Origin: Gammaproteobacteria bacterium
Lineage (GTDB): Bacteria; Pseudomonadota; Gammaproteobacteria; CBDBNL01; JAAOII01
Length of the DNA: 64,000 nt
NCBI GenBank assembly: GCA_965209035.1
Contig: CBDBPY010000001.1
Span: forward strand, 1-64,000
Direction: 5' to 3'
Both the position numbers and the translations under genes were made by a program. This document shows, in pieces, positions 9,188-64,000 of the stretch (its first letter is position 1; each line of letters opens with the position of its first letter). Under the pieces are notes generated by a model. The model ran no database searches, was not told the origin of the DNA, and saw only the letters and a list, made by a program, of their open reading frames with translations.

Positions 9188-9484
9188 TTAATCCGCGATC
9201 TGGATTTTTCGCGTTCTCGTTTCGAGTATGAAGCGCATCGGATAATCGCCCGCCTTCTTCATAACTTCGTCCCGCACGCGATTCCACAGATGCTCTCCAT
9301 ACTCGAAAGAGTGGCGAGCCACCGAAAACAAAGCGCCCGATCCATCGACCACAACCGGCGGGATCGATGCTCCGTCGCCTATCATTACGGTTAACACGCA
9401 GTAATACCGCGTCTCCGTCTCCTTATCGACGACGGATGATTTCGCGCTTCGGGCGCGCGTCGTTTGGGTTTTTTTCTTTTCCAT
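9188..9484 (-). CDS. Hypothetical protein (repeated-leader gene A)
   Basis: ATG GAA start behind the conserved GAGGAAAAATCAAAATG leader. Confidence 0.65.
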   Translation of the reverse strand: MEKKKTQTTRARSAKSSVVDKETETRYYCVLTVMIGDGASIPPVVVDGSGALFSVARHSFEYGEHLWNRVRDEVMKKAGDYPMRFILETRTRKIQIAD

Positions 9485-9559
9485 TTTGATTTTTCCTCGT
9501 TTTGGATTTGTCGCAATGCGCGACAAACATATTTTACACGCCCGAAGACGCGATTTCAA
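9482..9559 (-). promoter_or_regulatory. Sigma70 promoter, hairpin and conserved RBS leader (copy A)
   Basis: TTGAAA-17-TAAAAT, hairpin TTTGTCGC/GCGACAAA, then AAATCCAAAACGAGGAAAAATCAAAATGG. Confidence 0.75.
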
Positions 9560-22354: not shown

Positions 22355-23406
22355 CAGCGCACCTCCACTCTCAACTCCGCGTCATAACGCGAAAACGCCG
22401 ACCACACCCGATAAATCACACCGCAGTTATTCACCGTATCCCTCTCAATCAGACCCAACAGCACATTGTCATCCTCATAATCCGCGTTGAGCCACTCGAA
22501 ACCGCTCACCGAACCAACCGGAATCCAAAGGAAGATATACGAATCCCGATCGTCCGAACCAATCGAAATAACACTCCCCGACTTCACCGAACCCCGCCGA
22601 ACCAAATCACCCTCCGATGATCCCGACTCATCGTCGCTACGACCATAAATAATCTCCACCTCCGACGACCCCGAATCACGACCCACATCCCCGTCAAGAC
22701 GACTTTGCAAATACTCCTCTCTCGTTCTCCCACGACCCAACACCGTCCCCGCCGTGTCAAGCGACGGACGATCAATCGGCAACAAGCGATGAAACTGCCG
22801 CGAATAAAATTCGGGAGTCATCCGACGATCACCGTAATACATCGAACCCCCAATCTCCCCCAACTTCCACAACACGCACAAAATTAACGCCTGCTCGTTC
22901 GCCTCATATATCGCATCGTCAATCTCTCCGTCAAGCGGAATCCGACGATACGACACCAACAAATCACCAGGCACACGGCGCGATAAACTCGCCTCCCAAA
23001 ACCAATCACCTCCTATCTGTATCCGACGACGCGACACCAACAGCGACTTCAACGAATCATCCCCGCAAAACCTCTCCGGCCGCAACCAAATCCCCGAATC
23101 ACGATCCAAACGACCCCCCTGCAACTCACCATCCGTCCAATACGAACCGCGCCAAAAATCGACCAAGTGCAAAAGAACATCGTCCTCAAACAAACCCGCC
23201 CCAAAATAAAACGACGAATCATTGCGACGCGCCGGAAAACCACTCGCCCCTTTCGCAAGAACTTGCTCGTAAATCGGAACGCCCTGCACCTTCTCATAGT
23301 GCCGTATCGCCCGCTTCGCCGCCGACTCCAAAAAAGCCATCGGCGCATCCGGCCTCGTGAAAGGCCGCACCGCCGACGCCAAGCGACTAATCGTCGTCAC
23401 ACTCAA
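22354..23406 (-). CDS. Head-tail adaptor-like protein
   Basis: N-terminal VRPF..PDAP..FLE.A.KRA pattern and position before the nozzle gene. Confidence 0.55.
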   Translation of the reverse strand: MSVTTISRLASAVRPFTRPDAPMAFLESAAKRAIRHYEKVQGVPIYEQVLAKGASGFPARRNDSSFYFGAGLFEDDVLLHLVDFWRGSYWTDGELQGGRLDRDSGIWLRPERFCGDDSLKSLLVSRRRIQIGGDWFWEASLSRRVPGDLLVSYRRIPLDGEIDDAIYEANEQALILCVLWKLGEIGGSMYYGDRRMTPEFYSRQFHRLLPIDRPSLDTAGTVLGRGRTREEYLQSRLDGDVGRDSGSSEVEIIYGRSDDESGSSEGDLVRRGSVKSGSVISIGSDDRDSYIFLWIPVGSVSGFEWLNADYEDDNVLLGLIERDTVNNCGVIYRVWSAFSRYDAELRVEVR

Positions 23407-35489: not shown

Positions 35490-35612
35490 TTTTCGATTCC
35501 TCGTTTTTGATTTGGATTTTGTCGGGCGGTCGGCAAATCAGCGGAAAAAAAACCGCACCCTCACCAAACCGACCGCCCGGGAGGAAAGTAAGGGTGGCTA
35601 AATTGTATCACA
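35487..35612 (-). promoter_or_regulatory. Extended -10 promoter and long structured leader (copy F)
   Basis: GTGATACAAT; two interleaved stems and a U8 tract; conserved RBS. Confidence 0.65.
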
Positions 35613-52600: not shown

Positions 52601-55600
52601 CCGCCGCCGATAGACGCGCACCCTTGTCCGCGTTATCAATCTCCTCTTGCTCTCGCTCGCTCCACATATTCCGTCCGTCGCTCTCCACATTGTCGTCGCC
52701 GCCCTCGGTTTTCTCCTCATTCTCCTCGATCGACTCGATCGACTCGATCGGCTCGCCTGATATCATCTTTTTCCAATCCTCAACCGGCCGAAAATCACCC
52801 CAATTTATCTCAACGAGCAACTTGATAGCCCCCGACTTATTTATATTGTCATCGCTTTGCACCATATCTCCCAACGCCTTGTTGCCCGAAAAAATAAACA
52901 CGCGGTGGTATTCTTCTCTCGCCCGCTCGATTTTTCCCTGCTCGTAAAAACCTATCTTGCTGATATATCCCCACCCCTCATCTCCCACCAAATCATACAC
53001 CATCCGCAAACTACGCGAATCCAACGCAAAAAACTCTTTGCCATCTTCTCCCACAAACGAATAAACATCATTGCCAACCTCTATTTTTCCGTTCAAACCA
53101 ACCTTTACTTTTCCTTCCAACGAAGGCAATCTAAACCTAAACACCGCGCTTTTAACGAAATCCGAATACGAATCAACGCCCTTTTCTCCCGCCTCAAATT
53201 CACCAAGCGTTGCGTCGCCGCGAACACCAACCGAAACTTTCGGATTACTCCTGCTCCCCGACAACTTTATCGTCAAACCGCCTTGCCGCTCGCCATCGAA
53301 GTAATCGTTATCCATATCCATTTTCGGCAACCCGCCAACAGCCGCGTTTGATCCCCCATATCTCGCCCAAGCCAAACCGCCCAACTCATCGAAAAAATCA
53401 TCGGTGTGGCTTATCTCCCAATCACGCGAAAAAGGAGTCAATCGCTTTCGCGCTGACGCAACTTCGGGTTTTAATATGAAGGCGATCGCCTGTTTTCTTT
53501 TAATGCCTGCCTTCGTTTTAGGCGGCTCTTCCTCATCTTTCGCCTTCTCCTCCGCCGACTCCTCTTTCACCGTCTCCTCCGCCGGCGCAACCGGCGGCGC
53601 AACCGATTCCGACACGATTACCCGCTTCTTCCCTCGCTTCTCCACTTTGAGACCAATCGCCTCCGCAACCGCTCCATCAGTTTGCTCGAACGCCACTCCC
53701 CGATTTTTCAAGTAAGACCAAAATTCCTTTTCTTCTCTCCCCTCAAAATTCGGAAGCACAGCCGCCGCATATTTAACCGCCGCCGCATTCGCCTCCTCAA
53801 TCGACCCCGAAAAATTCGCAATCGCCATCGCGCGATTTATCACATCTTCGCCTGCGCCATCATAACCCTGCGCCGACAGCAAATCCAACCACTCCGACCT
53901 CTCCGGCTTTCTTCCCTCCGAATCCAACACCGCGCCGATCGCCTCGTCCCGGCCATCCTCGACATATTCCGTTGCGGCGAGATCGTCGCTCGCCCCGTCC
54001 CCCAATTTATCGATTCTTTGATATTCCGCCAAAAATTCCTTAGCCTCATTCGAATCTGTGGTATTATCGGGCTGGATTTTCGCTTCGCGCCCACCTCCTT
54101 CTCCATCTCCTCGCGAAGTGGAAATCCCTTTTTTCCCCTTAACAATCCTCCCCGACGCTCTCGCGCCGCGCGCCTTGTCCGTCGCCTCCAAAATCGAATC
54201 CAACGCCTTCGCGCCAGTATCTCCCACGCTTTCCGCAAACTGCCGCAATGCCTCCTCGCCGCCCCTTCTCGCTTTGACGAACGCCCGACCCGCCGCCGCC
54301 AATCCCTCGTCGCCCCCAAATTCTTCCCGCGCCGCGTCCGTTGCCGAACCCAATTTTTCATCCACTCGGCGATACTTTTTCGCTCTCCAAACCGCGTGTC
54401 GAGGATGAACGCGGAAACTCGGCGGAACATAGCGACCATCACTAGCCGCCGCCAACTCCGCCCAATCACTCTCGATTTCAATCATCATCGATTCCAACCG
54501 CTCCAATCTCCCCGCCTTTTTCTCCCCTCCGCCTTTTTTCTCCGCCGCGCGAGCCGTTGCCCTATTTTTCACGCCTGCAACCGCCGATTCACCCGATCTC
54601 AATTCGCCCGATAATTTTTCATATCCCTCGATATTCGAGCGCAATCTCTCATCAATCGATTCCATTCCCGACGGCGGGCGACGCGAATCCAACAACCCCG
54701 ACACCAATCCCCGCGCACTGGCCGGAATCGCCGCCAAACCCTTTTTTACATAATCCGGCGCAACTTTCACAATCGCCGCCTCGACATCTTTCACACCACC
54801 AGACCAATTTTCCCCAAGTTGCGATTGCAGACCAGCCACAAAATTTCCGCCGCCGTCCTCACTTTTTCGATCCATCGCCGCAACCGCCGCCGCAAGCGAT
54901 TCCCGCGCCACGTCCGCCGTCGCACCCGGAACATAACCCATCGCCTCCTTGTCCGTCATCGAACTCGGCTTCGCGCCCGACAAAAGCGCGCCGCGTATCG
55001 CCGTCGCCAACTCCGCCGCCGCCCGCTCGTCCGCCCCGCTCGCAATCGCCTCGGCCGACAATTCACCAGCAATATCGCCGGCCCTCGAAACGCGCAACGC
55101 CGCATCCGTCGTTCCCCTTTTCGCCGCCCTCTCCGCTCTCTTATCCCCCAACCGCTTCGCCGCCTTCGCGCCCAAGCCAACGCCCGCCGACACAACCTCC
55201 GCGCTCGCGCCACCGCCCAAACCCCCTGCAAAACCCGCCGTCGCAGAAATCGCAATCTCCTCCGCCGTCGGAAAATCACCAGCCGCAACCGCCCCCGCAA
55301 ACAATTCCGCCGTCTCCTCCGCCGCTTCCTGCCCGGGCTCGAACAAAATCCCCGTCGCTCCACGTGAAACAGCAGGGTAAATTCTACCGCCAAGACCACC
55401 TAAAACCGCCCCCGCTCCGCCGCCAAGAGCCCAAGCAAGAGGCAGGCGCCTGCTTATCTCCGCTTCTCCAACTCCCGCAGTCCTCAATCTTTCCCTCGCT
55501 TCGTCGGCACTAAACGCACCAGACAAAGCACCACCAAAAGTTGCCGCTCCTCCCGCCGGAGACGACAACGCCGTTCCCGCTTTTTGTAGCGCCGTTCCCT

Positions 55601-56210
55601 TTTTCGCCAACGATAAAGCCGCTCCTGCACCGCGAATCGCACCAATTCCAGCGATAGAAAACGGCAAACTTCCAACGCCTTGACCGAGCGCATACTTAAA
55701 ATGATTCGGATTGATCCCACCATCCTCAAAAAACGGCCTCGCCTTCTGCCCCGCCGTATGTGCGTCTTCCTCGACAACATCAACTCCGTCCCCAAATGCC
55801 GCATCGTAAAAATCTTTCGGCAAAGCCAAACCTCTCTTGACTCCCTCACCAAAACTTTCTTTTCCCGATTCCAATAATTCAATGTCTCCCCATCCGCCGT
55901 TTCCATTAGACGGACTCACACCAACAACATCAAATCCGTCGTCCCTGTCCACGATCCCCCAAACCACATTTACCCCTTTCGCATCCGCGAAATCAACTAT
56001 TGCTTGGCCAGTATTCGCGTTTATCGGGATTATAGGTATATTTTTTGCGTCATCGGCGATATCAAGCCGGAATCCGTCGAGCCCGCTCCGCAACTTTGGC
56101 TTTGCTCGCCTTCGACCGCCTGCGGAATATCGATTCCGGATATCACTGGCGATTTGAGGAGCGCTTTGAGACAAGTCAATCGGGGTAATCGGTTCGGGCA
56201 TAAAATTCAT
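43671..56210 (-). CDS. Giant polyvalent DarB-like virion protein (N6-MTase, Strawberry-notch SF2 helicase, metallopeptidase, ADP-ribosyltransferase-like)
   Basis: EPTAGTG/FMNPPF; GWGVGLGKTR, LDESH, YLSGT, SRAGATGLNL, QGLGRSNR; LAHEIGH; NHRT..F..FD...FYFSS...KNPL...GHDAVIF. True start possibly ATG 56201. Confidence 0.88.
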   Translation of the reverse strand: MNFMPEPITPIDLSQSAPQIASDIRNRYSAGGRRRAKPKLRSGLDGFRLDIADDAKNIPIIPINANTGQAIVDFADAKGVNVVWGIVDRDDGFDVVGVSPSNGNGGWGDIELLESGKESFGEGVKRGLALPKDFYDAAFGDGVDVVEEDAHTAGQKARPFFEDGGINPNHFKYALGQGVGSLPFSIAGIGAIRGAGAALSLAKKGTALQKAGTALSSPAGGAATFGGALSGAFSADEARERLRTAGVGEAEISRRLPLAWALGGGAGAVLGGLGGRIYPAVSRGATGILFEPGQEAAEETAELFAGAVAAGDFPTAEEIAISATAGFAGGLGGGASAEVVSAGVGLGAKAAKRLGDKRAERAAKRGTTDAALRVSRAGDIAGELSAEAIASGADERAAAELATAIRGALLSGAKPSSMTDKEAMGYVPGATADVARESLAAAVAAMDRKSEDGGGNFVAGLQSQLGENWSGGVKDVEAAIVKVAPDYVKKGLAAIPASARGLVSGLLDSRRPPSGMESIDERLRSNIEGYEKLSGELRSGESAVAGVKNRATARAAEKKGGGEKKAGRLERLESMMIEIESDWAELAAASDGRYVPPSFRVHPRHAVWRAKKYRRVDEKLGSATDAAREEFGGDEGLAAAGRAFVKARRGGEEALRQFAESVGDTGAKALDSILEATDKARGARASGRIVKGKKGISTSRGDGEGGGREAKIQPDNTTDSNEAKEFLAEYQRIDKLGDGASDDLAATEYVEDGRDEAIGAVLDSEGRKPERSEWLDLLSAQGYDGAGEDVINRAMAIANFSGSIEEANAAAVKYAAAVLPNFEGREEKEFWSYLKNRGVAFEQTDGAVAEAIGLKVEKRGKKRVIVSESVAPPVAPAEETVKEESAEEKAKDEEEPPKTKAGIKRKQAIAFILKPEVASARKRLTPFSRDWEISHTDDFFDELGGLAWARYGGSNAAVGGLPKMDMDNDYFDGERQGGLTIKLSGSRSNPKVSVGVRGDATLGEFEAGEKGVDSYSDFVKSAVFRFRLPSLEGKVKVGLNGKIEVGNDVYSFVGEDGKEFFALDSRSLRMVYDLVGDEGWGYISKIGFYEQGKIERAREEYHRVFIFSGNKALGDMVQSDDNINKSGAIKLLVEINWGDFRPVEDWKKMISGEPIESIESIEENEEKTEGGDDNVESDGRNMWSEREQEEIDNADKGARLSAAVEADKANEKTRRAMFLFSADNKGDLKKMSLGGIYFVAGRAVATDEQAMALVSGIPTLDGAPDDGFMFRKNGEVDFDVAFYNQEEIERVIPKKATARFVQDTRYLIGIKKEDRRENKDSKPKMEWGTARIEYERADVYVDARYLRAIGELAKARGKSEVDVFLNGLEAISFIAEDMLVVVKPKYYSGEVSYTSREEEKEERKRSFHIGSGEDGVVGYEEGEFNPIEVWTGGVKNQEEKVLSDNESSRSEESEVEVDETLAKDLPVAPDEGDVEVAGETPAVDDNSAMLELRDSASVSEWVFGRGGGLRGVVRDFWAMNREQWRSGEYSIPKWRGKRIFEPRGKRGGGPAFLAWSLSVDEMSDLLIEMSSVDVWEGAMSGFAARARAALNSGIYEEEKGLEEMRDAPESMIESMTAAYQVVSGAMRDQNPISNRVDLDNRMNSAGAVGLNSRDLWESLEAGVNRYLLDMGLTAIPRDAAGEVDWSAARNQMGAVGILEDLLPRQTETTADKKSMQAYSTPPRIAFLGGLLANARKGEKSFEPTAGTGGLAVFLSGSKIYANEYDEQRAGFLRAVLPAGSEIEISPEDQLSAKGEFKKVMGGEGFDVVFMNPPFSRSADLPSRRAPDAGIAAGMLDRGLESLRDGGRMVAIVGHSLRSDKDSGRELFEKWGDDLRANLLFDGSHYWSMGAKFDFRVLVFEKGGGKGDVVMKKLGYRAGNEEMVSAASEVESRGEVMVKEETKPIVEESPAKEGVLAELVEDEGVDEDKSDSRGEGLDLGVVGEDKTDEDAKRIEGVDEGDLGEIEGPSLVGAPDVSATEIPDGADAAKLIDEWIGFSDWRKFFVGKGLMKVGERKEEIRKLYVGLHDLAAAVGAPKSGLKLGGAFGDVGDLSSGYGLSRSWLSSLMLNGGRDIGLGEVEKVVASVKALDKPLVEAMGDYFAGYVSAMLADRGIEDSVGLGDGGEIDPSVNKVFARFFDGLSWSGNGILVSRPLVSVEKSSTAKVAKARRVQRDLSGEGSFVSFDPTSIVSLDQISGATEKPKNADIVETMNMAGVMPPLVAESSRIGGDLSQVYDYQAAIGLQALDAFDRLVKLRNEFKGEEGMPDGDSVEVRGGYLAGWGVGLGKTRLAGLVAREVMRVSKQKRAVMFAPREVIDQAADDLSAVGAISGESYIRVGDKKADADLGVVENGFYALTYEAFSVGARGSAFKTSARYEQLNRMMGNDYDGVIVLDESHLVSNLGEEKEEGRKLKGSARAKLMERFLMRHPRARVLYLSGTAIKNVNSLGHLSRLGLFGVGDEYPFETADEIMREVSSDEGSRQGIGEGIALGAKERGVFSSLQQSEFGIENEAYPIELDDRMQLKSERAGELMLDIFWAVEEASESQLWAAGIEKEKMRKADANRGVRRSAIFGLFTRIQKALEIESKLPHIAPKSGGLVREMLKKGMRVILQGDSTGEADLKKSMLRALSEGDDISEVFDHNPTIAFENVVRAIFPIEKKHAVAGKDGSVSLETKFYTVSEKGRGYRQVEAEKVLTDSGKVRLFFPAIKDNKGEIKERKRSAGTLDFDPLVHFINAKTFLVSLVDPKLYEEREEALSLIKRIGIPLPPLDIIRGNLGDMVGEVTGRSAMLRFDANGKLLGGVAKRSGKANKEDMSLWRRGWGKNAKGEDSINTKKVLIISRAGATGLNLGDDPRETIFGEGLPGEAADSPVRSRKVAHIPIDFGWQVVAATQGLGRSNRVRQSTKPHRVIPYVSNDPTEARFMGAMLSKLREMGGVTRASGKGYTEGMDFLSGFDMFDKYGNEAVKNVLMSNRGIFYYLGYDFGVDKETYPAFDKVMNRVKFLPISKSSPMVRGWEKELSLMDEEKELKKKSDRAESKKNRNEKDETAIYDYRRLVWLKERLEMTRDRGSDELNRLATAFNRTDFVGTVLRERERLIEMDKRIGRYSEGIVKESADMIEAGESVSVDDFEFREVVMKSRRATISMEDIMSRISGDSIGGNKSEESYFFAVNRLGNPVAVVVWERDVTGYYRRPQMAGVDNTVVDAVRIVSPDGRESFREYSEGEIERLKKGKDGGKNLPMRAGEYKSGDKIFKEAWSERMESKSFAVSRKLVIPFGGDTLRQWKRLKKKTPGVSGSDSSLRLRQFTTRGGETFVGVWLRGKMESAAREMMSGKDTGLSMSAEELMKGVDNGETAIFETMRISSVGSGASRYYKIDPGATAVESDLSFLGDGWELMRNGRKVWGRSKSRGSVMRILEMKSGLVRLLGSGGVERFSIPRGVIGDKPFWEVTDEGAKKLGELEDGVINIRKIWIENGWRSQVRGIFPRDYFHNLADTKLLEYDGAGGYPEIVPDEDQINKITAKLRDKFQELLEYASEWRSMLEDEYDRLLEEEDYSKSEIRELKSDAKKTEKYAVKMIKEEMAKIRYANRWFRKKWPSDERYSIPSRDNYTARERRRFTDAAPVFFATADGDGSVVVGERVEARLPAKVILAEYPNVVRSMSDSGKAEVYAAHGGVERWKDAVEAIDPKKKRESLRIAGRLNEFFEGSGMRDSFGLDLRIQSDGGRGGGSFDPAARVIKIALDLESSEGEEEAMSTLAHEIGHVFYEHLSGRDRERVEEMMPEWKKRYGADIKRSVEETKSRNPGVSDWSWLEEEEAFGYAIQDWHRKGGDGIISRIMRFLRRLSGWLRREGLSSADEAADLFSRVLRGDVKIEDLSGGRARKIREMGGVSGGLVFSIPPPKKAIDENGKYNPNLDPRLKYAPLSNEIWNHRTNEEFPDFDIRKTKTASHFYFSSTPGGETMYGKRLIRARIAAKNPLVIGDLFEGVRDDGTFGPIDPPPWLKEWALSEYGDEVSDYESDYDREERENSGIDDDSAIDDDDGNSDDERERTDEQKKRAALQLFWEDTGTLYQSGGRGRQDSLINEALGNGHDAVIFPDIGKSDEESGIESAHTSLALEDPLLIINADTGEQMSAAGNQVGEE

Positions 56211-56236
56211 TTTACCATTAGTAGGGCGCGTATATG

Positions 56237-56263
56237 AAAAAATCCCCCGCCGGAGCGGGGGGA
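56237..56263 (-). terminator. Intrinsic terminator
   Basis: ATCCCCCGC-TCCG-GCGGGGGAT-TTTTT. Confidence 0.75.
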
Positions 56264-56282
56264 TGGGGGGGAGAGATGCGGA

Positions 56283-56579
56283 TTAGAAGCGGTGATACCC
56301 GGCCGCGGCGGCGCGGTGTCGGGCTTCCCATCGATCGGGATGGGAGCGCATAGCACGGGCGCCAACTTCCACGCAAGTATCGCCGGAGTGAGAGCCGGTC
56401 TCGATTTTCGCCGGAAAACCGCACTTGATGCAAGCGAGCAATTCGCTCGAAAAAGTATTTGTCCCATTTTCAGCGCCGCCGTGGGATAGGGTGCAAAGAT
56501 CGCCCCCGCACTTCGGGCATTCGCCCGAATACACCATCTTGCGTTGCTGGTCCCAGTTTTGGGCTTTTTGATTTTTCAT
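56283..56579 (-). CDS. Zinc-ribbon protein (ACUGGAA-leader gene G)
   Basis: CPKC...CIKC. Confidence 0.65.
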   Translation of the reverse strand: MKNQKAQNWDQQRKMVYSGECPKCGGDLCTLSHGGAENGTNTFSSELLACIKCGFPAKIETGSHSGDTCVEVGARAMRSHPDRWEARHRAAAAGYHRF

Positions 56580-56700
56580 TTTTGTTTTCCAGTTTTGGAT
56601 TTGTCCTCCCAACTTCCAGTCGTCGGGATTCGACAACTCTATTATATCATACAACGCCAAAAATAAAAAACCCCCCGCCTACGAAGCCGCAAGCGGGGGG
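56577..56700 (-). promoter_or_regulatory. Terminator, extended -10 promoter and ACUGGAA hairpin leader (copy G)
   Basis: CCCCCCGC..GCGGGGGG-TTTTTT; TGATATAAT; hairpin 56602-56635. Confidence 0.7.
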
Positions 56701-56721
56701 AGAGGAGAGGGGCGGTCGCAA

Positions 56722-57138
56722 TCAGTCCGAATCCATAAAGACCTTTTCATCTACGCGACAACCGCAACCGCCGCAAACAATTTCATCGCCTTTATCGACA
56801 TCCGGGTTGTATCCGGTGGTCTGGTGTCTCCGCCAAAATCGAGTGTGGCCGCACCCGCTACACCACTGCTTGTTATTTTCGAACATAACTTTGGCCGTGA
56901 TTGGGCTTGCGCGGGGGTCGGGCGCGGCGGCTGTGTCGGTTGGGGGGTAGTGATCCCAATGCGCGCCGGCATCGATACTTAATCCCAAGTCATTGATTGC
57001 CGCAATTGCTTTTATGGCAATCTCTCGCTGTGTCGGAAAGGCGCGGCAAGCCGCCTCCTCGCAAATGCGACTCAGCACACATTCGGCCTTTCGAACGATC
57101 TCGCGCTCGTTGTCGCTGATGATGATTTGATTTGTCAT
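56722..57138 (-). CDS. Hypothetical protein with C-terminal zinc ribbon (leader gene I)
   Basis: CSGC...CGGC. Confidence 0.65.
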   Translation of the reverse strand: MTNQIIISDNEREIVRKAECVLSRICEEAACRAFPTQREIAIKAIAAINDLGLSIDAGAHWDHYPPTDTAAAPDPRASPITAKVMFENNKQWCSGCGHTRFWRRHQTTGYNPDVDKGDEIVCGGCGCRVDEKVFMDSD

Positions 57139-57250
57139 TGGTGTTTCCAGTGTTTGATGTCCCGCCAGATTCCAGTTCCAGCAGTCGACAACTCCATTAT
57201 ATCACAAAGAGACAAAAATAAAAAACGCGGCGACACACTTACCGCCGCGT
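57136..57250 (-). promoter_or_regulatory. Terminator, extended -10 promoter and ACUGGAA hairpin leader (copy I)
   Basis: ACGCGGCG..CGCCGCGT-TTTTT; GTGATATAAT; hairpin 57158-57190. Confidence 0.7.
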
Positions 57251-57268
57251 CCCCCGTTGGTGATTTTA

Positions 57269-57949
57269 TCAGGGCAGAGATATTGTCTCGTCCCCACTCT
57301 CAATCGCGGAGCGGCTTATAATTTTGCCGTCTTTTACCACGATTATGATATCTTGCACCCCATCCGAATTATATCGATTAGGCAAATGCTCATAAGCGGC
57401 GGTAGCGAATCCGCCAAGTTCGTCATCGTCCAACTCTTTCGATATCGATTCCCCCCACACATTCCCCAATTCCCCCACCTTTTCCAGTTTGTCGATCTTG
57501 GAAAAGAGCGCCGATAATTTTTCGATTCTGCCGCTTTCGTGATCTCCGGCATCGGCCTTATCGGTTTCGAAAAAGCAATCATCTCCGCCATTCTCGATTT
57601 TCTCGTCGACGACCTGCTCGTAGCATTCGCCGCCGGCGATTGCGTTTTTAGCAATTTCGGATATCTCGCTCCAAACATCGGCGCGCGCTTGTATCCAAAA
57701 ACGGATAACTTGGATTCTCGTCGGCATCTGCCCCAAAAGAACGCCGCGATTTACGAAAACGCCATCAATGTGGGAGGGATAAACGGAGAATATCATCGGC
57801 GCGATAGCCAACAGCGCGGCGGATTCGGAGTCGGCGACGATGAAGCCGAGCGCGGCCGTGGCGACCGCCAATAACGCGGCGACGGCAACGGCGATAAATC
57901 CGCTTTCCGAATCATCGTTGCCGTCGCCGCGAGGATGATCAGCGATCAT
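57269..57949 (-). CDS. Membrane-anchored hypothetical protein
   Basis: ATGA coupling; N-terminal GFIAVAVAALL...AALLAIAP module. Confidence 0.65.
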   Translation of the reverse strand: MIADHPRGDGNDDSESGFIAVAVAALLAVATAALGFIVADSESAALLAIAPMIFSVYPSHIDGVFVNRGVLLGQMPTRIQVIRFWIQARADVWSEISEIAKNAIAGGECYEQVVDEKIENGGDDCFFETDKADAGDHESGRIEKLSALFSKIDKLEKVGELGNVWGESISKELDDDELGGFATAAYEHLPNRYNSDGVQDIIIVVKDGKIISRSAIESGDETISLP

Positions 57950-59325
57950 CGATTCCCGCACTCTTGGAGTGTTTTGATATTTTTGGAGTGTCCGCGCTTT
58001 AACGCTTCGGTTTCCGTAATACCAAGCAAACCCGCAACCCTTGAAGCGTTTTTGTGCTCCAATTTGACATGTCTAAAGTTCCATCTCGCAAGGACGGGAG
58101 ACAAGTGGCCGTATTTCGAGATCTTATATGTGCGAATCTCTATATCATCGTAGTCGCGGCGAATCAACATATTAAATAAATTGTGGAAGCGGTCTCCACG
58201 CTTTATCGCCGAAATCTCCCAAGCCGCTGATTCGCGGTTATTCCTGCCGCCATAGCAACAGCCGCAATCATAGACAAGTTCGACTTCAAATCCGGCTTCT
58301 TTCGCCGCGTTGGTGATGAAGTCAATGACTTCGTCGGGTTTGGTGGCGGCGGCAAGCGGCGCAACCGCCAGCAACGCGGCAACGCTGTCAATCCCAAATC
58401 CCGCGACGATGAAGCCGATTACGCCCGCCGCGACCGACAGCAATGCGGCGACGGCGATGCCGATGAAGCCGTGTGGGGCGCGGCTGGCGCGGAAAAGTTG
58501 GGCCGCTGGCGAAACCCATGCGTAATCTTCGGAAACGCCCCACCAGCCGCCATAATCATCTCGCGATTCTTTCCTCTCCACATAAAAGGAAATCATCTCG
58601 TCGCGGGCATTGTCAGGGCTACCCCAACAAGCAATTTTCGCGCCGATTTTTCGCGCCGCCACATCATTCCAAGCGCGGAACAAAATGCCGTGATTCGCTT
58701 TCCCAACCGAAACTCGATAGAGCGAATACTTTGCCGCGATAGACGGTTGCGACGGGCAATACCCTTTGTTGACATGCCAACCCTCTATCGGGCGATACAT
58801 CGGAAGCGGTGCCCGCTTGCCTGCTTTTGCCAGTGCAGCAGGCGCGACTGCCGCCAGCGCGAACGACGCCAGATCGATCGCCAAATCGATGACGAACGCG
58901 CCCGCCACCAGCACACAACCGATCGCCGCGCACATCAGCGCGAGCGCAACAAAATCGACATTCCCGCGTTGCGCGGCGCGCTCGACGGTCTCCGCTTTGG
59001 GCGGGGTTTCCGACGACCGCGAGGGCGCGTCGTAGTCGCCGGCATCTCCAAGTTTTTGTTCCTGATTGAACAGATACGCAGAGTCGACAATCTTCGGCAA
59101 ATCGCCGTGAAGCGTCACCAATTGTTTCTCCAAAGACGAATAACGGCGATCGCCGGCTCTAATGCCGCGCATACGATAGAACACAGCGCAGTCACGGACA
59201 GCGTGAAGAATAATGGCAATGCGCCGCTTGTGCGCAACAATCTGGCGATTGTTGATCTTGCCGATATTGGCAAGGGGATATTCGCGGGCGGTGCGGCCTT
59301 GCCGCGTGTTGCTTTGATTTTCCAT
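57946..59325 (-). CDS. Modular hypothetical protein with two internal hydrophobic modules (leader gene H)
   Basis: MENQS... start; soluble domains separated by two related hydrophobic hairpins. Confidence 0.7.
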   Translation of the reverse strand: MENQSNTRQGRTAREYPLANIGKINNRQIVAHKRRIAIILHAVRDCAVFYRMRGIRAGDRRYSSLEKQLVTLHGDLPKIVDSAYLFNQEQKLGDAGDYDAPSRSSETPPKAETVERAAQRGNVDFVALALMCAAIGCVLVAGAFVIDLAIDLASFALAAVAPAALAKAGKRAPLPMYRPIEGWHVNKGYCPSQPSIAAKYSLYRVSVGKANHGILFRAWNDVAARKIGAKIACWGSPDNARDEMISFYVERKESRDDYGGWWGVSEDYAWVSPAAQLFRASRAPHGFIGIAVAALLSVAAGVIGFIVAGFGIDSVAALLAVAPLAAATKPDEVIDFITNAAKEAGFEVELVYDCGCCYGGRNNRESAAWEISAIKRGDRFHNLFNMLIRRDYDDIEIRTYKISKYGHLSPVLARWNFRHVKLEHKNASRVAGLLGITETEALKRGHSKNIKTLQECGNR

Positions 59326-59461
59326 TTTTGCTTTCCAGTTGTTTTGGATTTGTCCTCCCGATTTTCCAGTTTCGGGATTCGACATTTTCATTATACTCGC
59401 ACCAAAACAAAAAGTCAAATCGAAAAAAACCGCCGAATCCTATAGCAAAAATCGGCGGGTT
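59323..59461 (-). promoter_or_regulatory. Terminator, promoter and ACUGGAA hairpin leader (copy H)
   Basis: CCGCCGA..TCGGCGG-TTTTTTT; TTGACT-17-TATAAT; hairpin 59351-59384. Confidence 0.72.
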
Positions 59462-59568
59462 GAAAAGAATGCCGGAATCTCACCGGCTACGAATTTTCGG
59501 GCTGGAAATCCCACGGCCTCGTTGCCGCTCGGAGCGCGCGCTCCAGTGCTTACTACTCCTTTTTCGTC

Positions 59569-59604
59569 GTTTCAATCCACCCCCGCCCTGCGGCGAGGAA
59601 AAAC
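59569..59604 (-). CRISPR. Solitary CRISPR repeat-like unit, type I-C-like
   Basis: GTTTTTCCTCGCCGCAGGGCGGGGGTGGATTGAAAC: 8-bp hairpin followed by the 11-nt TGGATTGAAAC handle typical of I-C repeats; intergenic. Confidence 0.7.
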
Positions 59605-59713
59605 GCGCCAAAACATTAATCACGCCGCCGAAAAAACATAATCGATAAAATCGAATGCGAGATCGAAAGCGAAAGCGAAAGCCGCCAGAGTCAAGCGCGG
59701 CTTGTTTCGCTTG

Positions 59714-59926
59714 TCATTTTTCGGTATCCGATTCGGTATCCGATTCGGGTTTTTTAGGGGCGATGAAAATAAGGGTATAAACAACCCCCGCTCCCACCAG
59801 CGCAACGCTACCTGATACAACCAGAGCAAACGCAAAAAGGTCGGCGGATAGCCGCCTTAAACCATCCAAAGCAACAGACCCCGCGATTACCGCAAAGAAT
59901 CCGATTCCTGATCTTGATATTTTCAT
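59714..59926 (-). CDS. Small membrane protein
   Basis: Two hydrophobic segments; ATGA coupling. Confidence 0.55.
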   Translation of the reverse strand: MKISRSGIGFFAVIAGSVALDGLRRLSADLFAFALVVSGSVALVGAGVVYTLIFIAPKKPESDTESDTEK

Positions 59927-60096
59927 CGCGCACCCCCGACAAAATCAGGGCATAGCGACGGCGGCGGGCTTGCAACGCGGCAGAATTTGTCGACGGCGAG
60001 CGAGTCAAGCCACGATACAAGAGCGAATGCGAAAAATATCGCAAGCACGGCGCAACAAAGCGCGACCGCGATCGATTCTTTTTTCGTCCGCTTCAT
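59923..60096 (-). CDS. Small single-TM protein
   Basis: MKRTKKESIAVALCCAVLAIFFAFALV; ATGA coupling. Confidence 0.55.
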   Translation of the reverse strand: MKRTKKESIAVALCCAVLAIFFAFALVSWLDSLAVDKFCRVASPPPSLCPDFVGGAR

Positions 60097-60281
60097 CTCG
60101 GCAACCCCTCGCCAGCAAAAACGCGGCAAATGCTTCCACGATGATCGACAAACCAAGATTTGGGAGCAGGGCGCGGCGGGTTTCGCGCGTCATCGATCAA
60201 CGCCTTAAACGATGTCATCGCTTCGCCGATTGTCTCGTCGGCATCTACCGATTCGGGTTTTGTGTTGGGGTTTTTTTCCAT
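60093..60281 (-). CDS. Small hypothetical protein (repeated-leader gene D)
   Basis: MEKNPN... behind the conserved leader. Confidence 0.6.
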   Translation of the reverse strand: MEKNPNTKPESVDADETIGEAMTSFKALIDDARNPPRPAPKSWFVDHRGSICRVFAGEGLPR

Positions 60282-60365
60282 TTTGATTTTCCTCATTTTT
60301 GGATTTTTCGACGATCGGAATATCGCCGTTATTGAGATTTTACACCCAAAAAAAAGACAAGTCAA
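60279..60365 (-). promoter_or_regulatory. Promoter, hairpin and conserved RBS leader (copy D)
   Basis: TTGACT-17-TAAAAT, hairpin CGGCGAT/ATCGTCG, AAATCCAAAAATGAGGAAAATCAAAATGG. Confidence 0.78.
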
Positions 60366-60403
60366 GCCCCCTCTTACACCATTCCTCGTGATATAATAAA
60401 TGC

Positions 60404-60528
60404 ATTGTCGTAAGGCCGATAAAGCGGTGAATTTCCATTTCATCTCCTCTCGGTGGATTAATTGATTCGGGGCGGTTTTCTTGCGATAACCCGATTAAAA
60501 AGAGACGGCTTCGGCCGTCTCTTTTTTT
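60404..60528 (+). ncRNA. Candidate ~125-nt small RNA with anti-SD loop
   Basis: Plus-strand GTGATATAAT at 60388-60397; terminator GAGACGGC-TTCG-GCCGTCTC-T7 at 60502-60528; folds with closing stem TTGTCGTAAGG/TCTTGCGATAA. Confidence 0.65.
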
Positions 60529-60542
60529 GATCCGCGCGGCGG

Positions 60543-60821
60543 TCATCGTTTCGGCGCGCGCGGTCGTTTTTTGGCGGCTCGCTCGCGCGGCATAAACACT
60601 ATGCGCCATTCGTCGCCGACACGCTCGCATTCGACGAAAATATCCACCTTAAACCCCAACTTTTTCGCCGCCGCTTTAAGTAATCCATCGCAACCTTTCA
60701 GCATACTGACAAAATCGCTCGCTATTATGCCGCCGTCGGCGCGCCCGCTTTTGAAAACAAGCACCATTTTTTCGCCTTCCTGTAAGCAGGCGGCGGCTTC
60801 GCGGGGGGTCGGTAAACTCAT
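60543..60821 (-). CDS. Hypothetical protein
   Basis: ATGA-coupled ORF. Confidence 0.55.
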   Translation of the reverse strand: MSLPTPREAAACLQEGEKMVLVFKSGRADGGIIASDFVSMLKGCDGLLKAAAKKLGFKVDIFVECERVGDEWRIVFMPRERAAKKRPRAPKR

Positions 60822-61036
60822 CGATCACCCTTGCGGATTTTGTCGGAATTGATGAGGACTTTTAACGGCAGAATCGCGGCATCGATCCGCTGAACGGCGA
60901 TAGCGTCGCCTTTTTTGTCGGCGCTCCTGCGCTCGAATTTCATCGCGTCCAGCGCCGCGACCAACTTATTGGCGGTTATTTGGTCGAGAGTGTGAATCCT
61001 TTTTATTTCAAAAATGGTCGGGGTTGTGGCTTTCAT
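60818..61036 (-). CDS. Hypothetical protein
   Basis: TGATG-coupled ORF. Confidence 0.55.
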   Translation of the reverse strand: MKATTPTIFEIKRIHTLDQITANKLVAALDAMKFERRSADKKGDAIAVQRIDAAILPLKVLINSDKIRKGDR

Positions 61037-61242
61037 CAGCCAAACGCCCATACCGCGAGTGCGGCAACGGCAATTCCCAATGCAAGAAGAGACGAGTTAA
61101 ATATAACTCCTACTATCCCGCAAAGTTTTTCCAGATCCGGAATGATTTTTTCATTCCGATATCTCAAAAGATGACAAGCAACGATGAGAGAAGTAATCAT
61201 CGAGCCGATTAAAAGCCCGATGAAGAAAATCAAACCGCTCAC
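61036..61242 (-). CDS. Small two-TM membrane protein
   Basis: Two hydrophobic helices; GTGA coupling. Confidence 0.55.
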   Translation of the reverse strand: MSGLIFFIGLLIGSMITSLIVACHLLRYRNEKIIPDLEKLCGIVGVIFNSSLLALGIAVAALAVWAFG

Positions 61243-61676
61243 TCTTGCCCCTCGATTTGCGCCGACGATCCCACGACAGAGTTATACGCCGCGTCGTGCC
61301 GATCGCCCGCCGTCGCCTTGCGGATAACTTCCTTTGGAAAAATTTCGATGAAAAAACTTCCGCCGATAACACCCCGACAAAATATATCCGGAGACAACTC
61401 TCCATTATCTCTAATTGCGCTGACGGTCATCAGCGGGCCGCCCGACTTCAGGCAGACAACATCGCCCGCCTTAAATTTGTCGGCTTGTGATAACACAAAA
61501 CGATCGCCCACTTTGAGCGGACACTTGCACCAAATATATCCAACGCCGCCGCCAAGATTTTTCGCATTTGGCGCGGGATAAACGGCAGAGTCGTATTCGG
61601 CGACGAGTTCTTGAATGTAGAGGATTTTTCCTTCTACATCGTGATAGGCCAAATAGCCGTTAGGGTTGCTTTCCAT
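61239..61676 (-). CDS. YodC/DUF2158-domain protein (repeated-leader gene E)
   Basis: FKAGDVVCLKSGGPLMTV. Confidence 0.7.
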   Translation of the reverse strand: MESNPNGYLAYHDVEGKILYIQELVAEYDSAVYPAPNAKNLGGGVGYIWCKCPLKVGDRFVLSQADKFKAGDVVCLKSGGPLMTVSAIRDNGELSPDIFCRGVIGGSFFIEIFPKEVIRKATAGDRHDAAYNSVVGSSAQIEGQE

Positions 61677-61760
61677 TTTGATTTTTCCTCGTTTTGGATT
61701 TTTGGAGATCCAGCGCCTCCATTTATTTTCGATTATACGCTCTTTTCGTCCGTTTTTCGA
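61674..61760 (-). promoter_or_regulatory. Promoter, hairpin and conserved RBS leader (copy E)
   Basis: TCGAAA-17-TATAAT, hairpin TGGAGG/TCTCCA, AAATCCAAAACGAGGAAAAATCAAAATGG. Confidence 0.72.
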
Positions 61761-62116
61761 GTCCGCGATTTCGGGTCGCGCGGCGGGATTTTATCGAGGA
61801 TTGATTCCAAAATCGCCTCCATTTTTTTGATTTCTTTCTTGACTTCCTCGATCTCTTCGTGCGCCGATTTTGTGGAATCTCGCAATTTCTTGATTACGCC
61901 GTTCGCTCCTCTAAGCCAAGGCAACATAAATACAAGCCGCCAGCCCTGCGACAACGAAAACCCAACGCCCCAAACTATCGCCAGCGCGACGGCGATTGCG
62001 AGAATCGCCCGCAACGCCGGAAACGGCGAAAGGACGGCAAATAAATCCTCGAACGCCATAATAAGGCGGTCGATAATATCCAAAGCAAATTGCTCGTTCG
62101 GCGTTTCGTCTCTCAC
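61733..62116 (-). CDS. Membrane protein with coiled-coil C-terminus (holin-like candidate)
   Basis: TM segment followed by a charged coiled coil. Confidence 0.55.
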   Translation of the reverse strand: MRDETPNEQFALDIIDRLIMAFEDLFAVLSPFPALRAILAIAVALAIVWGVGFSLSQGWRLVFMLPWLRGANGVIKKLRDSTKSAHEEIEEVKKEIKKMEAILESILDKIPPRDPKSRTRKTDEKSV

Positions 62117-62264
62117 AGCCAATCCCCTGCTTCATCGCGGCGGCGATTTCTGATCGATTCCTCCAATCCCAAATCCAGCGCGTCGCCTTGCGGATAGCGT
62201 TCTGGAATAAAGAGCTTGCGCGGCTTGCAGTCCCTTTTTTGTAGCCAATGGCGGTGCGCTCTAT

Positions 62265-62312
62265 CCGCTTCGCTTTCCGCTTCGCTTTCCGCTTCGCTTT
62301 CCGCTTCGCTTT
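62265..62312. repeat. Tandem repeat (CCGCTTCGCTTT)x4
   Basis: Four exact 12-bp copies abutting the mini-array. Confidence 0.95.
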
Positions 62313-62410
62313 GTAATAAACCTGCGCCTGCCCGCAATCCACAACTATATCGTCGGCGGAGCGGTGCGATGAGAGATTTTAATAAACCTGTGCCTGCCGC
62401 AATCCACAAC
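62310..62410 (-). CRISPR. Mini CRISPR array, type II-C-like: repeat(35)-spacer(30)-repeat(36)
   Basis: GTTGTGGATTGCGGCAGGCACAGGTTTATTAAAAT (62376-62410), spacer 62346-62375, GTTGTGGATTGCGGGCAGGCGCAGGTTTATTACAAA (62310-62345). Confidence 0.75.
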
Positions 62411-62422
62411 TGTTGCATCGTT

Positions 62423-62527
62423 TTATCGCCCGAAAACCTTTTTGATTTTGTCGATTGCGTTCGCCCACAAAATGACAATCGCCAACAAGAGCGTGCCGAA
62501 AACCCCTTTGACGGATTGCAGGTTCAC
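62423..62527 (-). CDS. 34-aa single-TM peptide
   Basis: GTGA-coupled to the Tad1-like gene; VFGTLLLAIVILWANA. Confidence 0.45.
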   Translation of the reverse strand: MNLQSVKGVFGTLLLAIVILWANAIDKIKKVFGR

Positions 62528-63018
62528 CGCTCCAACTTGCCTTCCACGCCGCGCTTTACGCGGTCGCGGCGGCGGCTCGCAAGGGCTTCGATTGCTTCCT
62601 TTGCCTTTTCGATCGCAAGCGCGTTTTCGTCGCAAGCGAATTTTCCGTCTTGGAAAATTTTAACCGGCGCAATAGCGGCGGCGATAAGGGCTTCGGGCGT
62701 TATGCCGTTGAGTTGCGGGTCTTTGTCGGGCGTGATATTGCCTTGCCGCGCGACAACTCGATCGAGCAGGTCGATGGTGAATTTTTGGATTTTGACAATA
62801 TCGTCGCGCGACGAATTTGAGGGGTTATTCGCAATGAAGGCAAGGGCATCAGCATCCGAAAGATACGCCTTGTCTGGCGGCAAAATGAAAAAATCGATTT
62901 TGTCGCCGCCGGGTTCTCCTTCGGCAACAGCCGAATAAAATCCGATAATCCGCGCGTTGGCGGGGGAGACGGCGCGATGGTCGCTGATTATGGAGAGGTG
63001 GAGAGGGAGGTTTGCCAT
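62524..63018 (-). CDS. Tad1/Acb2-family anti-defence sponge-like protein
   Basis: GEPGG...NGITPEALI...FQDGKFACDENALA....EA...L..RR.DR..RGVEG matches the Tad1 helical hairpin (FQAGPF..RENA.AL..EEA..W..RR..DR..R.V.G). Confidence 0.75.
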   Translation of the reverse strand: MANLPLHLSIISDHRAVSPANARIIGFYSAVAEGEPGGDKIDFFILPPDKAYLSDADALAFIANNPSNSSRDDIVKIQKFTIDLLDRVVARQGNITPDKDPQLNGITPEALIAAAIAPVKIFQDGKFACDENALAIEKAKEAIEALASRRRDRVKRGVEGKLER

Positions 63019-63036
63019 TTTTGACTCCTGTGTTGT

Positions 63037-64000
63037 TTATTCGCTCGGCGGGATTTCGTCGGCGGGCGCTTCGGCGGGCGCTTCGGCGGCTTCCAATCGC
63101 AAGACGAGTCCGTTCGCTCCTTGCGAGGGCGTAATGTCGGCTGTGCCAGGGGCTATGGTAGCGGCGGCGATTCGCGCGATCTCGGAATTGTCGCCCGCGT
63201 CGAGAATCACAGCGATTTGCGCCGTGTGATTCTCGATTCGAATCCAAGTCGCGCCGCCTGCGCCGACGGGCGAGGCGATGGAAACGCCGCGCTCGAAACT
63301 TGGCGCGCACAGGTGGGCTTCGGAATGGATATCGCCGCTCGCGTCGATGGCGAAAATGTCGGCTGGAATGCCGAAAGAATTGGAATCTTCGGCGACGGTG
63401 ATAGTCGCGCCGCCGCTTTTTGCGATGACATTGATTCCAACTGCGGCATCAAGCGCCCACGCTTCGGCGGCGGCTTCGGCGGCTCCGGTCTGGTCGGCGA
63501 AAGTATCGTATTCGCTGTAATTCGTTCGGGAACGCTCGCGGCGAATGACTCCAAGAACATACTCCGCGCTCCCTGTGGCGGCTTTGATTGCGGTAATCAG
63601 CGGCGCAATGTCGGATTCGCAAATGGCGCGCGCTTTGTGTCCGGCGTGAGTCCGCTCGGCAATAGCGAGGATTCGATCGGCGACGAAAGGGGTGAAACGG
63701 AATAAATCCGAACTGGCGGGGAGATTGTGATTTACTCCCACATTGTCGATTGCGGCGATGAGCGCGAGCATAATGCGGGCGTGAAACGCGCTGTGCTTGG
63801 CGTTGCTGTTCTCCCGCGCGGCGCGATGTTCTTCGCTCCCGCCGTGCGCCAAACGCGCGAGGATTCCTGCGCGCCGTGCGCTTCCGATTCGGGCGTTTTC
63901 GTCCGCGTCGGTTCGTGCGAAAAGATGACGCTCGATTTTGGATTGCGACAATCGCGGAACGATTTGGCCTGTCGGCAAGCCCGCTTCGTCGAAAGTCAAG
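63037..64000 (-). CDS. C-terminal part of a large virion/tail-fibre-like protein entering from the right edge
   Basis: Frame is open to the window edge; Ala-rich, with codon usage like the 1-3527 ORF. Confidence 0.6.
   Translation of the reverse strand, partial: LTFDEAGLPTGQIVPRLSQSKIERHLFARTDADENARIGSARRAGILARLAHGGSEEHRAARENSNAKHSAFHARIMLALIAAIDNVGVNHNLPASSDLFRFTPFVADRILAIAERTHAGHKARAICESDIAPLITAIKAATGSAEYVLGVIRRERSRTNYSEYDTFADQTGAAEAAAEAWALDAAVGINVIAKSGGATITVAEDSNSFGIPADIFAIDASGDIHSEAHLCAPSFERGVSIASPVGAGGATWIRIENHTAQIAVILDAGDNSEIARIAAATIAPGTADITPSQGANGLVLRLEAAEAPAEAPADEIPPSE

Follow-up and report, generated by a model that had tools for sequence, protein, structure and literature searches.

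What reads a heptamer that stands twice in the leader of each of three neighbouring genes, once in the loop of a hairpin and once in the Shine-Dalgarno (SD) position? The question is raised by a 64,000-nucleotide (nt) stretch of gammaproteobacterial DNA (contig CBDBPY010000001.1, positions 1 to 64,000 of the forward strand; hereafter the window), which covers 64,000 of the 65,717 bases of the second of two contigs in genome G000, here called the phage contig after its gene content. Three cassettes on the minus strand of this stretch, A, B and C, each place ACUGGAA in a hairpin loop and again just ahead of the start codon, and a first-pass annotation made from the sequence had proposed that they form a translational operator for a dimeric RNA-binding protein. 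The reading developed here, to which we give a probability of about 0.4, is that A, B and C belong to a family of nine promoter-hairpin-leader modules and that the doubled ACUGGAA is the shared site of a putative factor. Cassettes that combine a promoter, a 5' hairpin and a leader in the manner of the PeSL elements are an already known kind of thing; the doubled ACUGGAA is the new part.

ACUGGAA is doubled in the leaders of three adjacent cassettes

The three hairpins, and the second heptamer that ends 6 or 7 nt before each ATG, lie where the first-pass annotation had placed them (Table 1). The pattern TGTCGA-N(5-12)-ACTGGAA-N(5-12)-GACA has three exact matches on the minus strand of the window, against 0.00 expected and none in any of 100 shuffles, while ACTGGAA itself occurs 14 times in the window against an expectation of 3.2 +/- 1.9 and a largest shuffle count of 8. 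Leaders A, B and C account for six of these 14 occurrences, each with one in the loop and one ahead of the ATG, and the distance from the loop copy to the pre-ATG copy is 31 nt in A, 25 nt in B and 27 nt in C. All six sites read RACUGGAA(N). In the predicted RNA folds each hairpin consists of a 4-bp UGUC/GACA base, a GA(A) bulge on the 5' side and an upper stem 6-8 bp long, closed by a loop of 7-10 nt in which ACUGGAA is unpaired with a probability of 0.96-1.0. The upper stem of hairpin C has 7 bp including one G-U, and that of hairpin B has 8 bp including three G-U pairs and is unlike A and C in sequence.

When the three hairpins are aligned all 29 cells pair, with two pairs varying on both sides, three varying on one side (to G-U) and five invariant; the upper stem of B differs from that of A and C at 5 of 6 aligned pairs with pairing complete. 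Both ACUGGAA copies are far better kept than the intervening stems. Between leaders B and C the motif positions are identical at 14/14 versus 27/44 for the other positions, an outcome with a chance of ~0.001 at the 61% background (post hoc arithmetic), and copy B also keeps the TGTCGA/GACA base and the GA bulge. The host 16S ribosomal RNA (rRNA) terminates in ...GGAUUACCUCCUUA, the canonical anti-SD sequence, and ACUGGAA at the ribosome site leaves GGA alone to pair with it. That three adjacent cassettes each carry ACUGGAA twice is a real specialisation and not a product of chance. A pseudoknot between the loop and UCCA was considered and rejected, being 4 bp only and absent from B.

A family of nine promoter-hairpin-leader modules

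A profile built on the leaders finds exactly nine matches in the phage contig, all on the minus strand (E from 2e-6 to 0.024); the 2.18-Mb chromosome has no match, its best E being 5.3. The nine modules are M61700, M60305, A, B, C, M35518, M31429, M16514 and M9508. Each runs in the same order, from a sigma-70-type -10 box through a hairpin, AAAUCCAAAAC, a ribosome site and AAAAUCAAA to AUG GAA AA..., with an A-rich leader, and the similarity extends into the first codons (MENQ.., MKNQ.., MEKTP.., MEKNP..). A good -35 element is present in four modules (A, M60305, M31429 and M16514) and an extended -10 in three (B, C and M35518). The genes that they serve are mostly without relatives, 8 of the 9 having no Pfam or PHROG match and the M61700 gene matching DUF2158 and an uncharacterised PHROG.

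In all eight short-leader modules the hairpin starts 3-11 nt beyond the -10 hexamer, so that with an assumed transcript start 7 nt after the -10 it would open at positions -4 to +4 of the predicted transcript. All eight leader folds tested are more stable than their shuffles (z from -0.71 to -3.53). The stems that fill this place fall into classes unrelated in sequence, namely UGUCG../..CGACA, CGACGAU/AUCGUCG, UGGAG/CUCCA and a long one at 35518. The hairpin of M9508 has the same base as those of A, B and C, and is without the upper stem and without ACUGGAA; on sequence comparison the A-C hairpins look like this generic M9508-type hairpin with a motif-displaying arm added. In all six other modules the ribosome site reads GAGGAA and the loops are unrelated; ACUGGAA occupies loop and ribosome site together in 3/3 of A-C versus 0/6 of the others. 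Since the hairpin is common to all nine modules, the hairpin itself needs no special operator function, and the doubled ACUGGAA alone does. That A, B and C are members of this portable expression family, with a hairpin at or near the predicted transcript start that acts in RNA, is in our judgement highly probable.

Search for a reading factor and for relatives

CsrA (PF02599) gave no matches in a six-frame search of the chromosome and the phage contig, a search whose control was positive in 3 of 14 known genomes and which was made on a genome 92.7% complete; at the same completeness Hfq was not found in a six-frame Pfam search of host and phage. Among 57 open reading frames (ORFs) of the phage, scans against Pfam and PHROGs gave no RNA-binding, nuclease, RegA/RegB-like or regulator family. 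A host regulon is likewise absent, no host gene using the motif among its 290 chromosomal copies (as ACTGGAA); of the 17 that precede an ATG and an ORF, every one falls within a longer open frame. The complement of ACUGGAA is absent from 16S and 23S rRNA, and therefore the motif is not an rRNA-pairing enhancer. An Rfam search of 55000-64000 of the window at E up to 1 gave five weak matches far below gathering scores, none of them on a hairpin; one sits on a terminator (56667-56718).

Relatives of the cassettes were sought by similarity and by pattern. A blastn search with the 3.4-kb region had no match in 50,697 phage records, and against 40 related genomes it gave one 62-nt chance match and nothing else. 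The hairpin pattern occurs at 119 or more loci in viral contigs, with no cassette among the best 40, and the leader 16-mer at 98 viral-contig loci, none with a module. The 27-base leader pattern has 0 matches in metagenomes; the combined promoter and hairpin pattern has three loci in metagenomes, none in viral contigs and one in genome contigs, all four of them chance matches. The two-motif pattern is found at no fewer than 114 loci in viral contigs (at least 120 matches), with no cassette among the matches listed; in three of the listed loci the first motif is unpaired, in hairpins of -2.5 to -5.6 kcal/mol without a following start codon (hairpins A-C: -11.1 to -14.1 kcal/mol). At the protein level the N-terminus of the giant 4179-residue protein encoded next to cassette C and the portal have no close relatives in viral contigs, and scoring of the 1,535 best-matching candidates yielded no homologue of residues 1-600 of the giant protein. 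For protein A the one outside relative found, a partial one, is P0002, encoded on an ENA contig; the first hydrophobic segment of protein A is 85% identical to P0002 over 68 residues. The same phage is present in a second public study with 1 base difference, which leaves no natural variation to test the pairing.

Two resemblances were seen in passing. A complete viral record of 69,498 bp and 43% G+C (L234 / G404) carries ACTGGAAAAACCAATGACAAAG 3' of a terminator at ~22700-22740, matching the ribosome site and start of cassette B at 20/22 positions; the two phages share no other protein or DNA similarity, and the match is set aside as coincidence since they are otherwise dissimilar. Eight AT-rich viral contigs (L127, L143, L162, L183, L185, L196, L197 and L216) carry ...ataatgtaatAATCCAAAACGAGGAAaaaattATG, in which the 16-base leader core of the present modules stands immediately 3' of a -10-like box and ahead of a start codon, without a hairpin.

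A putative two-site operator and its alternatives

In the mechanism that we propose, each module would supply a host-type sigma-70 promoter, a stem-loop at or a few bases from the predicted transcript start, and a leader, the stem-loop being most simply a cap-like 5'-terminal hairpin that would protect the mRNA against 5'-end-dependent decay. The generic hairpin of A, B and C would have gained an upper stem presenting ACUGGAA in its loop, and ACUGGAA would have taken the place of the usual GAGGAA at the ribosome site of those three leaders. The two single-stranded copies could then serve as paired recognition sites of one trans-acting factor controlling A-C jointly; this would most probably be a protein of phage or host origin, other than CsrA. 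Such a factor might repress by binding the high-affinity loop site and then covering the weak ribosome site, as CsrA does on glgC, or might cut at both copies and so strip the message of its protective hairpin and of its ribosome site together, in the way that T4 RegB acts at GGAG; by these analogies a cutting enzyme would be as plausible as a binding one. A narrower version, which we regard as rather unlikely in its full detail, is that an RNA-binding repressor or RegB-like endoribonuclease of an undescribed kind reads ACUGGAA in a phage and host pair without detected CsrA or Hfq, that A-C are switched off or destabilised together, and that the zinc-ribbon-like protein B or C could itself act as the reader, with autoregulation as the consequence. 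The RNA operator of the first-pass annotation fares well as to the element, an RNA-level structure with a single-stranded loop motif, a second copy in the SD position and motif copies far better preserved than the stems, a build expected of a two-site RNA operator, and less well as to its ligand, no binding protein having been identified; its factor might be dimeric, and its mode of action might be translational. What the analysis establishes is the sequence, its fold, the strand asymmetry, the family membership and the motif conservation; the transcript start, the stabilising role and the factor, both its existence and its nature, are inferred.

Several observations weigh against this mechanism. 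No factor was found in the host and phage searches. The transcript starts are predictions. The ribosome-site ACUGGAA is partly paired in weak local helices, with an unpaired probability of 0.47-0.58. The stems do differ and still pair, as the first-pass annotation had stated; their covariation, real to the eye, falls short of significance, its score being reached in 66 of 500 column shuffles, since the alignment has three sequences only, two of which (A and C) are near-duplicates. The signal comes almost wholly from copy B. The three copies derive from one ancestor, and the sharing of the motif amounts to about two independent observations. Leader A, which has no G-U pair, folds better in the antisense direction (-16.5 versus -14.2 kcal/mol), and three leaders fold about equally on both strands. 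Finally, the searched collections hold no relatives, so that nothing shows the motif to have been kept over evolutionary time.

The alternative that survives best, although we think it somewhat unlikely, dispenses with a dedicated factor: the hairpins would be ordinary protective 5' stem-loops of duplicated cassettes, and the second ACUGGAA a weak GGA site left by a small internal duplication in their ancestor. The unrelated loops of the six sister modules, the position of A, B and C as paralogues within 3 kb, the statistically weak covariation and the failure of the host and phage searches to yield a factor are all consistent with it, as is the presence of GGA, equally far from the AUG, at the heart of the generic GAGGAA site. 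Against it stand copy B, which differs from C at 17/44 other leader positions and from A and C at 5/6 upper-stem pairs and has both 7-mers intact, and the change in the loop and the change at the ribosome site, which always coincide (3/3 versus 0/6). In addition, hairpins bound by proteins, such as the MS2 and PP7 operators, typically combine a bulged purine and an invariant loop with a variable stem, and the A-C hairpins have this same combination.

It is quite improbable that the repeats work as DNA, with a repressor bound over the transcription start at the TGTCGA...GACA and inner inverted repeats or at the direct ACTGGAA repeats, even though the inverted repeats overlap +1, the classic position of a repressor, and the outer TGTCGA/GACA does not vary among A, B and C and is almost unchanged in M9508. 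The eight short hairpins contain 8 G-U among 72 predicted pairs, and when the stems are read directly the non-Watson-Crick appositions are all G-T on the sense strand, with none A-C (three in B, one in C, one in M60305 and one at a position shared by M61700 and M16514). Six independent events all of one kind would have a chance of ~1/64; a duplex operator should give both kinds equally, and RNA is therefore favoured. The antisense fold is weaker by at least 1 kcal/mol in 5/9 leaders, including B (-13.6 versus -9.7) and C (-18.6 versus -13.7). The inner arms of B are unrelated to those of A and C, the direct repeats do not keep helical phase, a spacing that a flexible RNA tether fits, and no helix-turn-helix or repressor family is present among the 57 ORFs scanned. 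Judged from these stems the element appears to act in RNA. Sites for sigma-54, an RpoE-type factor and IHF (consensus sequences compared with the leaders by eye) were also rejected, their spacing fitting at most one copy.

An RNA ligand in place of a protein, that is, a small RNA or 3' untranslated fragment whose UUUCCAG would base-pair with both CUGGAAA copies, that of the loop and that of the ribosome site, is very improbable. The 285-nt non-coding stretch upstream of cassette A, which has a terminator at its end, does carry UUUCCAG (59508-59502, minus strand) in the loop of a small predicted 3-bp hairpin, a match noticed post hoc. In 65.7 kb, however, each strand is expected to hold a 7-mer ~4 times, and the strand in question carries 11 copies of TTCCAG; the predicted structure of the stretch is not more stable than those of its shuffles (z -0.98), no promoter was identified for it, and Hfq was not found. 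Hardly credible, lastly, is mimicry of an anticodon loop, with the abundant early CUGGAAA leaders as decoys or sensors for an anticodon nuclease or modification enzyme that reads tRNA-Ser(GGA): the host tRNA-Ser(GGA) (C1:1824689-1824776) does have the exact 7-nt anticodon loop CUGGAAA, which recurs at the three pre-ATG sites and in loop A, but the match was a post hoc observation, the corresponding letters are CUGGAAU in loop B and CUGGAAG in loop C, the 7-10-nt loops are out of register with the tRNA loop and the pre-ATG copies are not in hairpins.

Comparison with known systems

The PeSL cassettes of T4-type phages consist of a strong early promoter, a stem-loop, an SD sequence and a start codon, and flank orphan genes (PMC2839356, PMC4122927). 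As far as the available parts of these reports describe them, the present modules are alike in being repeated intergenic units (~100 bp in PeSLs) with a sigma-70-like promoter (here a consensus match), stem-loop, SD and start codon, in serving orphan genes insulated by terminators and, for one PeSL subclass, in placing the stem-loop downstream of the -10. In PeSLs the stem-loop terminates or attenuates transcription that comes from upstream, whereas here separate intrinsic terminators, which precede A, B, C and the 4179-residue gene, do so, and the hairpins have no U-tract, lie 3' of the -10 and are predicted to be transcribed at the 5' end. The same partial descriptions give T4-type myoviruses as PeSL hosts, in contrast to the podovirus-like orphan with a P22-like portal studied here, and PeSLs in them are without the loop motif repeated at the ribosome site that marks A-C.

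CsrA on glgC binds a loop site and an SD site and bridges them over 10-63 nt (PMC7652899). The CsrA/RsmA analogy drawn in the first-pass annotation stands as to geometry, each leader having a GGA in a hairpin loop and a second GGA at the ribosome site 25-31 nt away, inside that range; it does not extend to the protein, which was not found, or to the sequence. As the annotation itself had noted, the motif is off consensus: within the part of the source available, RACUGGAA does not fit the consensus RUACARGGAUGU from in vitro selection (SELEX), lacking its ACA, and is not A(N)GGA, having C two bases before GGA. The stems also differ, with 6-8 bp here and mostly <=4 contiguous pairs in CsrA SELEX hairpins.

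T4 RegB cuts the SD of early mRNAs at GG*AGRAYARAA and so inactivates the messages (PMC3014915). If a factor exists, it would resemble T4 RegB and RegA in a phage-directed attack that recognises sequence at the ribosome-binding sites of several early messages. On the portion of that report available, the sites here share the A-rich 3' context of RegB sites, as in GGAAAACAAAA of cassette C, matching the consensus by reading at 10/11 positions in C, 9/11 in A and 6/11 in B. They differ in their GGAA core, where the fourth base is A and not G or U, and in having a partner copy in a 5' hairpin loop, which RegB sites in this portion do not have.

Two further systems offer partial parallels. Stabilising stem-loops such as that of the ompA leader stand a few nt from the mRNA 5' end and need no particular loop sequence, and the present hairpins would be similarly placed if the predicted start holds. 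The start-associated sequences of Cluster K mycobacteriophages are repeated, conserved ribosome-site sequences suspected to be read by a phage factor; they differ in sequence and host group, and have no 5' hairpin partner.

If a dedicated factor does exist, the cassettes would represent a compact, CsrA-independent two-site RNA switch that couples message protection with ribosome access in phage early genes, and a further case of post-transcriptional timing beyond the T4 model. They would also offer a small orthogonal operator-regulator pair for engineering, and would illustrate how a generic mobile promoter-leader cassette can be specialised through two small edits. If no factor exists, they would be one more PeSL-like cassette family, in an orphan phage.

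Cassette genes and genomic setting

The coordinates of the cassettes and of the six other modules are collected in Table 1. Terminators and promoters are present as the first-pass annotation had described; its one-gene cassette is too simple for A, which holds two genes (459 and 226 residues, ATGA overlap). A single-sequence structure model of protein C was unusable (predicted local distance difference test score, pLDDT, 45). A hydrophobic segment of the form ..FIGIAVAALL..GFIVA..AALLA(V/I)AP.. is present in two copies in protein A and one in A2.

Table 1. Positions of the parts of cassettes A, B and C and of the six other modules in the window (aa, amino acids; SD, Shine-Dalgarno; UTR, untranslated region).
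Feature	Position	Strand	Description	Basis
Terminator before A	59423..59459	-	intrinsic, CCCGCCGA...TTCGGCGG + T7	sequence read; stem also in predicted fold
Promoter A	59390..59418	-	TTGACT-17-TATAAT, 11/12 consensus positions	consensus match
Hairpin A	59351..59384	-	UGUC/GACA base, GAA bulge, 6-bp upper stem, 10-nt loop, ACUGGAA 59370-59364	fold z -3.29
Second ACUGGAA, leader A	59333..59339	-	SD position, 7 nt before ATG 59325	
Gene A	57946..59325	-	459 aa, two membrane-like segments, no family match	
Gene A2	57269..57949	-	226 aa, start overlaps stop of A (ATGA)	
Terminator 3' of A2	57220..57255	-	intrinsic	
Promoter B	57196..57204	-	extended -10, TGATATAAT (TGaTATAAT type)	
Hairpin B	57158..57190	-	UGUC/GACA base, GA bulge, 7-nt loop ACUGGAA 57176-57170	fold z -1.28
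Second ACUGGAA, leader B	57145..57151	-	6 nt before ATG 57138	
Gene B	56722..57138	-	138 aa, C-terminal four-cysteine zinc-ribbon-like motif, no family match	
Terminator 3' of B	56671..56700	-	intrinsic	
Promoter C	56641..56649	-	extended -10, TGATATAAT (TGaTATAAT type)	
Hairpin C	56602..56635	-	UGUC/GACA base, GAA bulge, 8-nt loop, ACUGGAA 56620-56614	fold z -3.53
Second ACUGGAA, leader C	56587..56593	-	7 nt before ATG 56579	
Gene C	56283..56579	-	98 aa, four-cysteine zinc-ribbon-like motif, no family match	
Terminator 3' of C	56244..56261	-	intrinsic, 34 nt before 4179-aa gene	
M61700	61668..61737	-	TATAAT, hairpin UGGAG..CUCCA 61721-61703, loop holds CUGGA, GAGGAA ribosome site	
M60305	60272..60342	-	TTGACT-17-TAAAAT, hairpin CGGCGAU..AUCGUCG 60328-60309, shared leader	
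M35518	35479..35607	-	TGaTACAAT, long 5' UTR hairpin, shared leader	
M31429	31397..31468	-	TAGAAT, hairpin CGACGAU..AUCGUCG 31452-31433, shared leader	
M16514	16483..16548	-	TATAAT, hairpin UGGAGGC..GUCUCCA 16533-16515, shared leader	
M9508	9475..9536	-	TAAAAT, hairpin UGUCGC..GCGACA 9528-9506, shared leader	

Pfam and PHROGs scans of the phage contig gave a P22-like portal, a large terminase, an internal virion protein and DNA methylases, and in the 4179-residue protein a Strawberry-notch-type helicase and a methylase-like region; the contig is therefore a podovirus-like phage genome. Its G+C content is 54%, versus 49% for the 2.18-Mb chromosome, and 7 bases common to both of its ends hint at a circular assembly. 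The nearest cultured phages by portal tblastn (12 records) are Ochrobactrum phage POI1126 and Bcep22-like Burkholderia podophages, at 21-24% identity. In the host the 16S and 23S genes lie ~310 kb apart.

The 4179-residue gene has no SD sequence in its start region (56199-56238, minus strand), and a promoter-like TTCATA-18-TAAAAT overlaps its first ATG and places the predicted start at about the second ATG (56201), which from the sequence suggests a leaderless message. The gene at 31821 is similar, with TATAAT 8 nt upstream of its ATG.

The non-coding stretch upstream of cassette A also contains a solitary CRISPR-repeat-like sequence, GTTTTTCCTCGCCGCAGGGCGGGGGTGGATTGAAAC (window 59569-59604, minus strand), with a 7-bp stem and a 4-nt loop; its last 12 bases are identical to those of a type I-C repeat (PMC5071653). 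It stands alone in this genome, 400 other genomes of the class yielded no copy, a second degenerate repeat beside it is not significant (84/500 shuffles), and the adjoining spacer-like stretch has no match in viral contigs or this genome. It could be a decoy of the RNA anti-CRISPR type. In run X1 the summed contig depth reaches 2091 in the bin 59506-59600 versus ~95 elsewhere, and a second contig version of 59463-59560 has 6 substitutions and 6 indels at equal depth; the stretch 59463-59600 is repeated or polymorphic in the sample. The host itself encodes Cas1 and an array of 88 repeats ending AATTTCTACTGTTGTAGAT (G000:C1:1955076-1962000), which look like repeats of Cas12a type. Its spacers have no full-length match to the phage, and spacer 2 matches 16 nt over the ribosome site and start of cassette C (56587-56572).

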